Shown: positions 39,883 through 60,067 of the stretch, piece after piece | Layout of the letters: every line of letters starts with the position of its first letter | Position numbering within the stretch: the stretch's first letter is position 1 | Sequence record: MT446420.1 | Direction: 5' to 3' (one strand) | From: Escherichia virus TH54 | Length of the DNA stretch: 64,000 nucleotides | Position numbers and translations under genes: made by a program | Notes under the pieces: model-generated | What the model was told of the DNA's origin: nothing | What the model saw: the letters and a program-made list of their open reading frames with translations, nothing else | Database searches by the model: none

Positions 39883-41621
39883 TTAATATGTCAGATAATG
39901 TAAGTTGGTTCGTCGGGGTTGTTGAAGACCGAATGGACCCACTTCAGCAAGGTCGTGTACGTGTTCGCGTATGGGGTATGCATCCATATGAGAAAGCACA
40001 AGGGCCAGTAAAAGGTATCAGAACTGAAGACCTTCCTTGGATGTCAGTATTGATGCCAACATCATCTGCATCGGTTTCTGGAATTCAAACTGCCATGACT
40101 GGTATGGTCCCGGGAACCCAAGTGTATGGTCACTTTTTAGACAAGTGGAAGCTCAACGGTCTTGTCATTGGCACATATGGTTCAGCCTCAAGACAAAAAG
40201 CAAATCCTAACGAAGGTTTCTCTGACCCCACCGGGCAATATCCGCTTTATATAGGTAATGATGCTGCTGCGCTTAACCGTGGAGGCGAAGTCGGTTATGG
40301 TGCCACTTCGAACGTAATACAAGATGCAAACCTTGATTTGGGTATTAACCCGGATGGTCTTGATTTGAGTCAGGTTAAACCAGATGATAATCCTAATTTC
40401 ACAATTGAAAATATGCTTCATCGTGATGAAGGTCTTCGTTTGAAAGTATATTGGGACACCGAGGGTTATCCTACTATAGGTATAGGGCACTTAATTGCAC
40501 CACAACCTATTAGAGATATGAATCAGATAAACAAAATATTATCTAATCAAATAGGCCGTGAAGTTAAAGGTAACCCTGGTGCAATATCAATGGACGAGGC
40601 TTCTAAGTTATTCCAGGAAGACCTTAAAAAAGTCCAAAATGATATAGGCAAGCATAGTGTTGTAGGTCCGGTTTACAATAAAGAAAACCGTTCGAGACAA
40701 ATGGCTCTTGAAAACATGGCTTTCCAAATGGGATTAGGTGGATTGGCTAAATTCCGTGGAATGCTTAGTGCAATGTTAATAGGTGATTATAAGAAGGCAT
40801 TTGAGGAAGCTCGCAATTCAGTATGGTTTAACCAAACTAAAGGGCGTGCATCAAGAGTATCAATGATTATCCTTACCGGTAATATGGAATCATATGGTAT
40901 TATGGCCCCTAAAGAAAGAGAATTTAATGGCCGTTCTTATAGGATGATTCAAACCTTTGCAGCCCCTACAAATTCTGACCCGGCCGACCCGTGGACTCCA
41001 GAAGATACGAGGATTCTGTTTAAAGAACCAGAATCAAGTTACAAGGGTGAATATCCTTACGTGCAGACAATGCAAACTGAAGGCGGTCATATTCAGGAAT
41101 TCGATAATACACCCGGGCAAGAACGTTATCGACTGATTCACCCGACCGGGTCCTATGAGGAAGTTGCACCAGATGGCCGTAAAACTTCGAAGACTGTTGC
41201 CGATGGTTATTATATGACCCAGGGTGATTCGAGTACTTATGTTGGTGGTAATAATAAAGTCAACGTTGGCGGTGATGAAACCTATTACAATATGGCTAAT
41301 GTTCGACGTCAGACTGATGGAAACGAAAGTATTCATATCAGAGGGAATGAAACCAAAACTATCGAAGGTGATGGTACAATTATCGTCAAAGGTAATGTAA
41401 GTATTCTTGTCGAAGGTAATGCTGAAATAACTGTTAAAGGTGATGCAAAAACTCTTGTCGAAGGTAACCATGATTATACGGTAAATGGTAATGTCAAATG
41501 GTCTGTTAATGGAAACGTTGATATGACCGTGGCTGGCAATTGGTCCGAAACAATGTCAACAATGAGTTCAATTGCATCTGGTCAATATACTATTGATGGT
41601 TCGAGGATTGACATTGGCTAA
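39879..41621 (+). CDS. 5: baseplate hub / tail lysozyme and cell-puncturing spike gp5
   Basis: 580 aa; lysozyme core DEGLRLKVYWDTEGYPTIGIGH; C-terminal VxGxxxxx beta-helix repeats. Confidence 0.95.
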   Translation: MINMSDNVSWFVGVVEDRMDPLQQGRVRVRVWGMHPYEKAQGPVKGIRTEDLPWMSVLMPTSSASVSGIQTAMTGMVPGTQVYGHFLDKWKLNGLVIGTYGSASRQKANPNEGFSDPTGQYPLYIGNDAAALNRGGEVGYGATSNVIQDANLDLGINPDGLDLSQVKPDDNPNFTIENMLHRDEGLRLKVYWDTEGYPTIGIGHLIAPQPIRDMNQINKILSNQIGREVKGNPGAISMDEASKLFQEDLKKVQNDIGKHSVVGPVYNKENRSRQMALENMAFQMGLGGLAKFRGMLSAMLIGDYKKAFEEARNSVWFNQTKGRASRVSMIILTGNMESYGIMAPKEREFNGRSYRMIQTFAAPTNSDPADPWTPEDTRILFKEPESSYKGEYPYVQTMQTEGGHIQEFDNTPGQERYRLIHPTGSYEEVAPDGRKTSKTVADGYYMTQGDSSTYVGGNNKVNVGGDETYYNMANVRRQTDGNESIHIRGNETKTIEGDGTIIVKGNVSILVEGNAEITVKGDAKTLVEGNHDYTVNGNVKWSVNGNVDMTVAGNWSETMSTMSSIASGQYTIDGSRIDIG

Positions 41622-41631
41622 TATACTTCCA

Positions 41632-42153
41632 ATGAGCACTGACCTAGGAGACTCCATGGAAGGAGCTTCAATCGATGTTACGTTTACAGCTCAATTAGAA
41701 ACAAACGAAACATTAGTCGAAATAAATATAACTGAATATGAGGCCACCCTTGGCGTTAATGTTGAGGGTAATCATCTTTATGGTGTTTATGAATCCGTGT
41801 TCGGATTTGCAGATGATGCGCTTAAATATCGGCTTAATGATGAATTCAAAACTGCTGGTTCATGGGAAGACCTTCCTACAGATAAGAGTACTCAATTGTA
41901 TCTCTGGAGGGCCCCAGCGAGCCTCCAGAAGGTCTTTTCATACACGGTAACCCTAACCTATGACTTTCAAGAAGAGAGCTCTGGTGGAGACACAGGGACC
42001 TCTGGTGGCAGTAATAGCCGTACAGGTAATGAGACCGACCCACCTCCTGCTCCAGTAAGAAAGACAATGACAAAAGTTTACACAAAAACTATCGTCGGCA
42101 ACTGGTCAAGATGGGCAGATAAATTGCGTTCATACGTATACGCGAGGGATTAA
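41632..42153 (+). CDS. 5.1: gp5.1-like protein
   Basis: synteny between 5 and 5.4; start inferred. Confidence 0.65.
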
Positions 42154-55091: not shown

Positions 55092-55099
55092 TATAAATA
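55092..55099 (+). promoter_or_regulatory. late promoter TATAAATA for gene 13
   Basis: exact consensus. Confidence 0.65.
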
Positions 55100-55117: not shown

Positions 55118-56056
55118 ATGGCAACTGAATCATACAACCCAAAACAATTAAAAGATGCAATCCTTCGTCGTCTTGGCGCTCCAATCACGAATATCGAAGT
55201 CACGACCGAACAGGTTTATGATTGCATCCAGCGTGCATTAGAATTATATGGCGAATATCATTATAATGGTTATAACAAAGGATATCAGGCTTTTTATATC
55301 GGTCATGATGAAGTTTCTCAACAGAAATTCCGTGATGGTGTTTTCGATTTAAAAGGACGTAATATTTTTGCAGTAACGCAGATTATTCGTACTAACGTCG
55401 GTTCATTAACTTCGATGGACGGTCAAGCAACATATCCATGGTTTACGGATTTTGTTCTGGGACTTGCCGGAATTAATGGTGGGATGGGAAGTTCGTGTAA
55501 TAGCTTTGGCCCAAATGCTTTTGGTGCAGACCTTGGTTATTTTACACAGCTTATGCAATATCGTTCGATGATGCAAGACCTGATGGTTCCGCTTCCTGAT
55601 TACTGGTATAACGACGATACTGAACAACTTAAAATTATGGGCAACTTCCGTCAGGGAGATGTGATTGTAATTGAAGTTTACACCAAATCCTTTAATGGTG
55701 TTGATGCAATGGCCAGCAATACTGCAGGTTATGGTTATGCTTCCGGTGATTGTTCAAATCCATGGAATGCTGGTGCGCAGTGGGATAACCCGGCTCGCAG
55801 AATAAGTGGCATGAGAGCCGGTGAGGACCTTGGACTTCAAGATGGTGCATACAACAACCGTTGGGTTAAAGACTATGCCACAGCGCTCGTTAAGGAAGTT
55901 AACGGCAACGTATTGGCTAAACACCAGGGGATGATGATGCCAGGTGGTACCACGGTTGATGGTGTTCGTTTAATTGAAGAAGCTCGTATGGAAAAAGAAC
56001 GTCTCCGCGAAGAACTTGACCTGCTGGATGCACCGACTCCTATATTGGTGGGCTAA
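55118..56056 (+). CDS. 13: neck protein gp13
   Basis: 312 aa; synteny. Confidence 0.92.
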
Positions 56057-56841
56057 TGGCTACTTATGACGCAAGATTATTCGCCCGGCTCGAAGACGGG
56101 ACCGGGTATGACAATACCAATGCTACAGAGATATTGAACCCTTATGTAAACTTTATGCATCATGAAAATACCCAGACTTTAGCCGATGCTATTGTTGCTG
56201 AAAGTATTCAGATGCGCGGAATGTCTCTCTATTATATCCCAAGACAATTCGTTAAACCGGATTTGTTATTTGGTGAAGACCTCCAGAGTAAATTTGATAA
56301 AGCATGGAAATTTGCTGGATATCTGGATACGTTCGATGCATATCAGGGTGATGGTTCTATCTTTAGTAAATTCGGTATGACTGTAAACGATGAAATTACA
56401 ATATCGATTAACCCTAACCTGTTTAAACACCAATGCAATGGAACCGAACCTATTGCCGGGGATTTGATTTATTTCCCTCTTGATAACAGCCTGTTCGAAA
56501 TTACATGGGTGCAACCTTATGACCCGTTCTATCAGGTAGGTCAAAACGCCATTCGTAAAATCACCGCGAGCAAATACATTTACTCCGGAGAAGAGCTTAA
56601 ACCCGAATTGCAACGAAATGAAGGTATTAATATTCCAGAATTCAGTGAGCTCGATTTGCAACCAATCCACAATATCGATGGTCTTACAGATATCAGCGAT
56701 ATCCCTTATGCTGAATCCAATGAGATTAACGCAGAAGCAGCTGAATATGTTAAACCGTATTTTGTGCAGAATGGTCGTGGTCTTGAGGCTCCACCTAAGG
56801 CAAAACAGGACAGCTTTGACGATAGTTTCTTTGATGAATAA
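56056..56841 (+). CDS. 14: neck protein gp14
   Basis: 261 aa; synteny. Confidence 0.92.
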
Positions 56842-56884
56842 ATACATTTATTAATGCGCCCGAACTGGGCGCCTGGAGGTTACT

Positions 56885-57756
56885 TTGTTTGGGCATTTTT
56901 ATAATTCGTCTCTGCGTCGCTATATCGTTTTAATGGGCGATTTATTTTCCCATGTACAAGTGGCCAGAACCAGAGAAGACACTGGACTTAAATATATTAA
57001 GGTCCCTATTTCTTATGCTTCAAAAGAAAAATTCATGATGCAGCTTGGAAAATGGACCGCTATTCAGAATACACCGACTCCTGACATGTCACCACAAGAA
57101 CGTGCTGCTCAGAAGGCTAAAATCGAGACCGTATTGCCCCGTATGAACCTGCATATGGTTGACTTGATGTATAACGGGCAATATAAAACGGCTCTCCAGA
57201 ATCACACACAGGCGCGATTTGCTAATAACGACCCTCGCAAGCAGATATCTCAATATTCTCCTGTACCGGTCAAAATGATTTTCGAGCTTGGAATATATAC
57301 AAGGCATCAAGATGATATGTTCCAGATTATCGAACAAATCATGCCTTACTTCCAGCCGCATTTTAATACAACCATCACCGAACTTTATACGAATGAAATT
57401 ACGTTCGAACGTGATATAAGAATCGTATTGCAGTCCATAGCAATGGATGAGCAAATTGAAGGTGATGCAATGACTCGTCGTAGACTCGAATGGTCCATTA
57501 TGTTCGAAGTTAACGGTTGGTTATATCCACCGGTCAAGGAAGTAGCCGGGGAAATCCGTACTATCTATCTTGACTTCTTTGCAAATTCCAGAGAGCTTGC
57601 ACCGGAAGGTAATTTCGAATCTGTTGACTCGGAAGCCGTTCCACGAGACGTCGACCAAGAAGACTGGCAAGGCGAATCTGTTCAAACCTATTCGCAGGAT
57701 ATTCCTGTACCGGTTGACCCAGCACCTCCAGCTCCAAGAAAAAATAGGGTACCATT

Positions 57757-57760
<4 letters not shown>
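56885..57760 (+). CDS. 15: tail sheath stabilizer / tail terminator gp15 (apparent TTG start)
   Basis: N-terminus [13 protein letters not shown] matches remembered gp15; GGAGG RBS. Confidence 0.9.

Positions 57761-60067
<2,307 letters not shown>

Follow-up and report, generated by a model that had tools for sequence, protein, structure and literature searches.

We found that gene 15 of Escherichia virus TH54, encoding the predicted tail terminator gp15, most probably begins at a TTG codon: we assign a probability of about 0.9 to initiation at UUG 56885 of the window, the whole 64,000-nucleotide stretch of sequence record MT446420.1 that was analyzed. The window belongs to Gaprivervirus (SP18, VR7, VR20 and relatives), a genus of T4-like phages of E. 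coli, Shigella and Yersinia, and the most similar record, TH57, matches it at 98.2% over 24 kb. The TTG start of gene 15 is already known and annotated in related phages, and its mechanism is textbook. The first-pass annotation had proposed this start, with no ATG preceding the conserved FGHFY codons, and the sequence, the Shine–Dalgarno (SD) pairing, the conservation and the homology to T4 all agree with the proposal. The features of the start site are the following.

56885–57760, plus strand: gene 15, 291 codons plus TGA, tail terminator / tail sheath stabilizer gp15
56885–56887, plus strand: TTG initiation codon of gene 15, predicted to be decoded as fMet
56875–56880, plus strand: SD sequence GGAGGT of gene 15, pairing with the 3' end of 16S rRNA at a predicted −10.0 kcal/mol
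56933–56935, plus strand: in-frame ATG (Met17 of gp15), without an SD and not a likely start
56856–56872, plus strand: GC-rich stem-loop GCGCCC-GAACU-GGGCGC, 6-bp stem, −12.4 kcal/mol, ending 2 nt before the SD

The start region reads GCGCCCGAACTGGGCGCC TGGAGGT TACT TTG TTT GGG CAT TTT TAT AAT TCG TCT, and the codons after the TTG, read directly from the sequence, spell FGHFYNSS. An in-frame TAA at 56852–56854 lies 11 codons 5' of the TTG, and the list of open reading frames places the end of the frame at TGA 57758–57760. No in-frame ATG or GTG occurs between that TAA and the TTG; from the TAA to the FGHFY codons the only start-like codons are CTG 56873 and the TTG itself, and the first in-frame ATG on the 3' side is codon 17, at 56933. 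Two other candidates were considered and rejected. CTG 56873 overlaps the SD of gene 15 and lacks an SD of its own (ΔG −2.4), and initiation at the out-of-frame TTG 56889 would yield a peptide of only 14 codons.

The GGAGG at 56875–56879 is prolonged to GGAGGT. The first-pass annotation had placed it 8–9 nt before the TTG, a distance that is right when counted from the centre of GGAGG but not from its end, where the spacer is 5 nt (56880–56884), or 4 nt if counted after GGAGGT; either count is within the working range. The duplex energy between SD and anti-SD was −10.0 kcal/mol for the TTG vs. +1.2 kcal/mol for Met17, and with values of −6.0, −5.4, −3.9 and −2.9 for genes 13, 14, 16 and 17, gene 15 has the strongest SD of the five neighbors. 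The bare motif GGAGG-N4-9-TTG occurred in the window no more often than expected (6 matches vs. 8.5), and the case for the TTG start therefore rests on its context, the motif standing at the head of a conserved reading frame and having the locally strongest SD pairing.

The gene product matched Pfam family PF16724 with 336 bits against a cutoff of 25 (E 1e-100), residues 4–271 covering positions 1–244 of the 245 in the model, and its residues 1–285 aligned to residues 1–271 of the chain in the T4 gp15 structures 3j2m/4hud (E 7e-103). On the basis of these matches, we identify it as a full-length homologue of T4 gp15, the tail terminator or sheath stabilizer. Gene 15 stands between the neck gene 14 and the terminase genes 16 and 17, as in T4 and VR7, and its surroundings are as follows.

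55092–55099, plus strand: T4-type late promoter motif TATAAATA, 19 nt 5' of gene 13 and the nearest one upstream of gene 15
56056–56841, plus strand: gene 14 (neck protein gp14), ATG start, TAA at 56839–56841; Pfam PF11649, E 6e-104
57757–58248, plus strand: gene 16 (small terminase), its ATG overlapping the gene 15 stop in ATGA 57757–57760; PF11053, E 2e-72
58232–60064: gene 17 (large terminase), the order 13-14-15-16-17 being that of T4

The late promoter motif was found 13 times in the window vs. 5.5 expected. Further plus-strand matches were absent between 55099 and 59561, and none lies between genes 13 and 17. As the nearest motif is 5' of gene 13, gene 15 is probably carried on a late polycistronic mRNA spanning genes 13-14-15-16-17. 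As a hexamer, the protein would terminate the tail, closing off the sheath and joining the tail to the neck protein gp14. In the T4 virion, R11 of gp15 forms a salt bridge to E227 of gp14 (PMC12929629). R11 falls inside the disputed N-terminal segment and is conserved in the window, and E227 is conserved in the window's gene 14 product as aligned to T4 gp14; the retention of these contact residues lends indirect support to hexamer formation and gp14 binding. A single-sequence AlphaFold model of gp15, considered for whether residues 1–16 are part of the fold, had a mean pLDDT of 41.8 and was too poor to use.

The start could alternatively lie at the Met17 ATG (56933), giving a gp15 of 275 residues and making the conserved upstream codons an untranslated leader. 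ATG is the commonest start codon, which favors Met17, and a start at this position is annotated in several related genomes (see below); nevertheless, we consider this highly improbable. The codon comparison, covering 36 loci with 24 distinct sequences, revealed variation at all 15 third positions of codons 2–16, the encoded peptide, beginning FGH(F/W), being almost invariant among the distinct sequences. Compared with locus L035, the window has changes in 14 of the 15 codons, of which 14 are synonymous and 0 nonsynonymous. The segment before Met17 thus varies in the manner of translated sequence, and codons 2–16 clearly appear to be translated and under strong purifying selection. The intergenic DNA just 5' of the start is not alignable by sequence among the same phages. 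Furthermore, Met17 has no SD, codon 17 is CTG (Leu) in another T4-like clade (L026–L030), and T4 gp15 itself starts at the codon homologous to the TTG. A start at Met17 would also lose R11, the residue in contact with gp14 in T4. Initiation at a downstream Met had been named at the outset as something that would overturn the TTG start, and the evidence from codons 2–17 goes against it.

The second possibility is that an ATG was misread or misassembled as TTG, or has recently been inactivated by mutation. The two codons are separated by a single T/A difference, and most T4-like phages have an ATG at codon 1 of gene 15. We searched public records by megablast with a 40-nt probe centered on the TTG, such that any match must span this codon. 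The probe matched all 32 public Gaprivervirus records, which come from many laboratories and countries, and the same probe with ATG in place of TTG matched none. Three IMG/VR genomes also carry the TTG, the reading frame of gene 15 is uninterrupted, and its product has the same amino acid sequence as VR20 gp15. With the TTG present in 32 of 32 independent records and the ATG in none, it is not a sequencing error: this reading, which the first-pass annotation had offered as a possible refutation, has next to no probability left and is, to the extent that sequences can decide, already refuted. The comparison with related phages, suggested there as a check, thereby came out in favor of the TTG start, the more so as VR7 annotates the same start: its record (NC_014792 / HM563683; GenBank 2010 and RefSeq) has an 876-nt coding sequence (CDS) beginning at this TTG.

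Other records differ in their annotation. We tallied annotations by the presence of a feature under the probe and verified SP18, UPEC07, YenM_P8 and VR7 directly. The TTG start was annotated in 10 records (VR7, VR20, VR25, VR26, 212, P479, PSD2001, ECML-359, EAWsc9 and CJ20), a start downstream in 9 (SP18, DK-13, UPEC01, UPEC07, MN01, RZ, P896, pEC-M719-6WT.2 and YenM_P8), and 7 records carry no annotation. The Met17 start was read directly in SP18 (L001), UPEC07 (L003) and YenM_P8 (L004), and for the other six it is deduced from the probe tally. Thus, 9 of the 19 annotated genomes, the SP18 RefSeq record included, drop 16 conserved residues of gp15, among them R11. These Met17 annotations look like gene-caller defaults and not like evidence for a start at Met17. 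The main value of the present analysis lies in this annotation issue: gp15 in public records is shortened by 16 residues, the records of phages phiP4-3 and ZZ1 (below) are shortened too, and anyone expressing, modeling or comparing gp15 from such records would be using an incomplete protein.

For initiation at the TTG, we propose the following course of events. Gene 15 would be translated from the late polycistronic mRNA, on which the 30S subunit would pair with the strong SD GGAGGU and thereby bring UUG 56885 into the P site. The UUG would be read by the initiator fMet-tRNA with a first-position mismatch, under proofreading by IF3, and gp15 would begin Met-Phe-Gly-His-Phe-Tyr, the N-terminal Met being predicted. 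Methionine aminopeptidase leaves the Met in place before a bulky second residue, and the N-terminal Met of gp15 is probably kept because the bulky Phe is second. The N-terminal tryptic peptide of the TTG-started protein has a predicted [M+H]+ of 1358.631; a literature search for N-terminal peptides of gp15 gave no match. The locally strongest SD probably offsets the weaker UUG codon, an effect on expression that we infer.

Such starts have ample precedent. Bacteria use three canonical start codons, and UUG is among them. It starts ∼3% of E. coli genes, gives 10 to 100% of the AUG yield in reporters, and the proteins initiated at it carry an N-terminal Met (bioRxiv 10.1101/063800). Among the 79 CDSs annotated in a 50-kb stretch of VR7, 75 start with ATG, 3 with TTG and 1 with GTG; the three TTG-started ones are a homing endonuclease, gene 5.1 and gene 15. 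Gene 5.1 (window 41614–42153, plus strand) provides a second candidate TTG start in the window, overlapping the end of gene 5. Its TTG at 41614 has a GAGG 7 nt upstream, the next ATG at 41632 has no SD, and the homologous TTG is annotated in VR7.

We studied codon 1 of gene 15 in a sample of 34 enterobacterial-type T4-like loci and found ATG in 26, TTG in 6 and ATT in 2; at every one of the 34 loci, the neighboring genes 14 and 16 have ATG. Outside Gaprivervirus, TTG is found in a subclade of Kanagawavirus comprising the Enterobacter phages CIP9, IME523, Q7622, Entb_45 and ZX14 and Kosakonia phage 305, most of whose records annotate the TTG as the start. At five loci of this subclade (L012, L013, L018, L079 from CIP9 and L080 from Kosakonia phage 305), the TTG lies behind an even longer SD, GGAGGTGA. 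In a neighbor-joining tree of gp15 with 100 bootstraps, which represents a single protein and has moderate support, the two TTG clades were sisters in only 3 of 100 replicates. Gaprivervirus grouped with the ATG-bearing JS98-like clade (89/100), and the Kanagawavirus TTG subclade grouped with the ATG-bearing PEi20 and L015 (71/100). The simplest reading of the tree is that ATG probably changed to TTG twice, independently.

In Bragavirus, namely Proteus phage phiP4-3 (L033/L081, position 602 of L081) and Shigella phage vB_SdyM_006, codon 1 is ATT, with an in-frame TGA 5 codons upstream and no ATG, GTG or TTG in between. The SD-like sequence is GGGGGTGGG, and the records annotate Met17 instead. 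We consider the ATT a candidate AUU start. ATT is also found at codon 1 in the ZZ1-like Acinetobacter phages; we withdrew these as a second ATT lineage, since 17 codons upstream they have an in-frame ATG, itself without an SD, which makes the case ambiguous. Compared with the near-identical metagenomic genome L037, gene 15 of the ZZ1 record (L082, NC_018087) is frameshifted by 1 nt (602–700); the annotated CDS begins at an ATG within the gene, and a Mob-like homing endonuclease gene is inserted immediately before the ATT codon. Of 121 distinct 5' regions in a broader IMG/VR sample, only 5 lacked an ATG, and these fell into 3 lineages. The SD energies of the non-AUG lineages ranged from −9.7 to −10.6 kcal/mol and those of most AUG lineages from −3.9 to −8.5 kcal/mol; the JS98-like sister clade, which has AUG, was at −10.9 kcal/mol.

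The stem-loop immediately upstream of the SD has counterparts elsewhere. A GC-rich hairpin of 5 to 8 bp was found at the same place in 17 distinct intergenic regions between genes 14 and 15 of T4-like phages (including L005–L035 and L080). The stems differ in sequence, and the loops are often stable tetraloops of the sequences UUCG, GAAA, GCAA and UACG. Assessed by folding and shuffling each sequence separately, the hairpins had z-scores from −1.5 to −5.3. On these predictions, many T4-like phages share the position and structure of the hairpin, whereas its sequence is not conserved. The 17 regions were too divergent to align with MAFFT, and RNAalifold predicted no pairs. A scan of 56500–57200 against Rfam at a permissive E-value matched no family to the hairpin, and a promoter and terminator scan found no terminator-like site there; we thus set aside both a described RNA family and a classic intrinsic terminator. 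Our guess is an element of mRNA stability or processing between the neck genes and genes 15–17.

The equilibrium fold of the RNA contained another structure, a long-range stem between 56858–56865 and 56887–56894 (GCCCGAAC/GUUUGGGC), which dominates the computed ensemble. This stem is in competition with the local hairpin and, if formed, would bury the 3' half of the SD and codons 1–3 of gene 15, and we counted it as a point against initiation at the TTG. Its stability was no better than that of shuffled sequence (z −0.54), and within Gaprivervirus the stem shows no variation; that it occludes the gene 15 start is speculation from the folding model.

One could see in these patterns a selected set-point, in which weak start codons and strong SDs, perhaps with the hairpin, would hold the synthesis of the tail terminator at a given level. 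The presence of a non-ATG codon 1 in three separate lineages (Gaprivervirus, the Kanagawavirus subclade, and phiP4-3 and vB_SdyM_006 of Bragavirus) is consistent with this, as are the separate placement of the two TTG clades among ATG-bearing relatives, the uniform ATG of genes 14 and 16, and SDs stronger than those of most AUG lineages. On the other hand, the lineages without ATG are only three among 121 distinct 5' regions, the tree represents one protein with moderate support, and an SD of the same strength is found in the JS98-like sister clade, which bears ATG. The last of these means that a strong SD may simply make the change from ATG to TTG tolerable, in which case the TTG would be a neutral variant. 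The combination of a weak start and a strong SD fits compensation and, equally well, a strong SD tolerating a codon change, and does not demonstrate selection for low expression. We therefore regard a selected set-point as doubtful, with perhaps one chance in four of being right. The broader claim, that gene 15 has been a recurrent target of weakened starts (UUG twice and AUU once) with a strong SD below a conserved intercistronic hairpin and that this reflects a selected set-point and not neutral drift, is somewhat less likely still. If it were true, the set-point might, for example, keep free gp15 from prematurely capping necks or tails. The recurrence of a weak start with a strong ribosome-binding site at this one late gene is a small, testable hint on how phages adjust the level of a structural protein needed in few copies. 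The recurrent weak starts, the conserved hairpin and the widespread shortening of the N terminus are modest leads, not established findings.

The preferred reading, initiation at UUG 56885, places gene 15 among well-known systems. The closest are the gene 15 copies of VR7, VR20, VR25 and VR26, which share with the window the genus, the 40-nt start region, the TTG and the length of 291 amino acids; the VR20 protein is identical to that of the window, which is a different isolate, and there is no difference of substance. The UUG-initiated genes of E. coli and its phages are likewise SD dependent, use the initiator tRNA and give proteins with an N-terminal Met, and we know of no difference between them and the start predicted here. 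For the ATT of phiP4-3 and vB_SdyM_006, the parallel is the AUU start of E. coli infC (and pcnB), a weak non-AUG start that sets expression. The AUU of infC belongs to a loop by which IF3 regulates its own synthesis, whereas nothing suggests that gp15 regulates itself, and the window has UUG and not AUU. T4 gene 15 (gp15; PDB 4hud, 3j2m and 9mkb) is homologous over the full length and has the same 13-14-15-16-17 gene order, and the N termini, MFG(Y/H)FYNSS, align codon for codon, with R11 in both. The T4 gene differs in that its homologous codon 1 is ATG, its SD (AGGAG) is weaker and the GC hairpin upstream is missing, and its product has 272 amino acids vs. 291 in the window, where 12 residues are inserted near residues 62–74.
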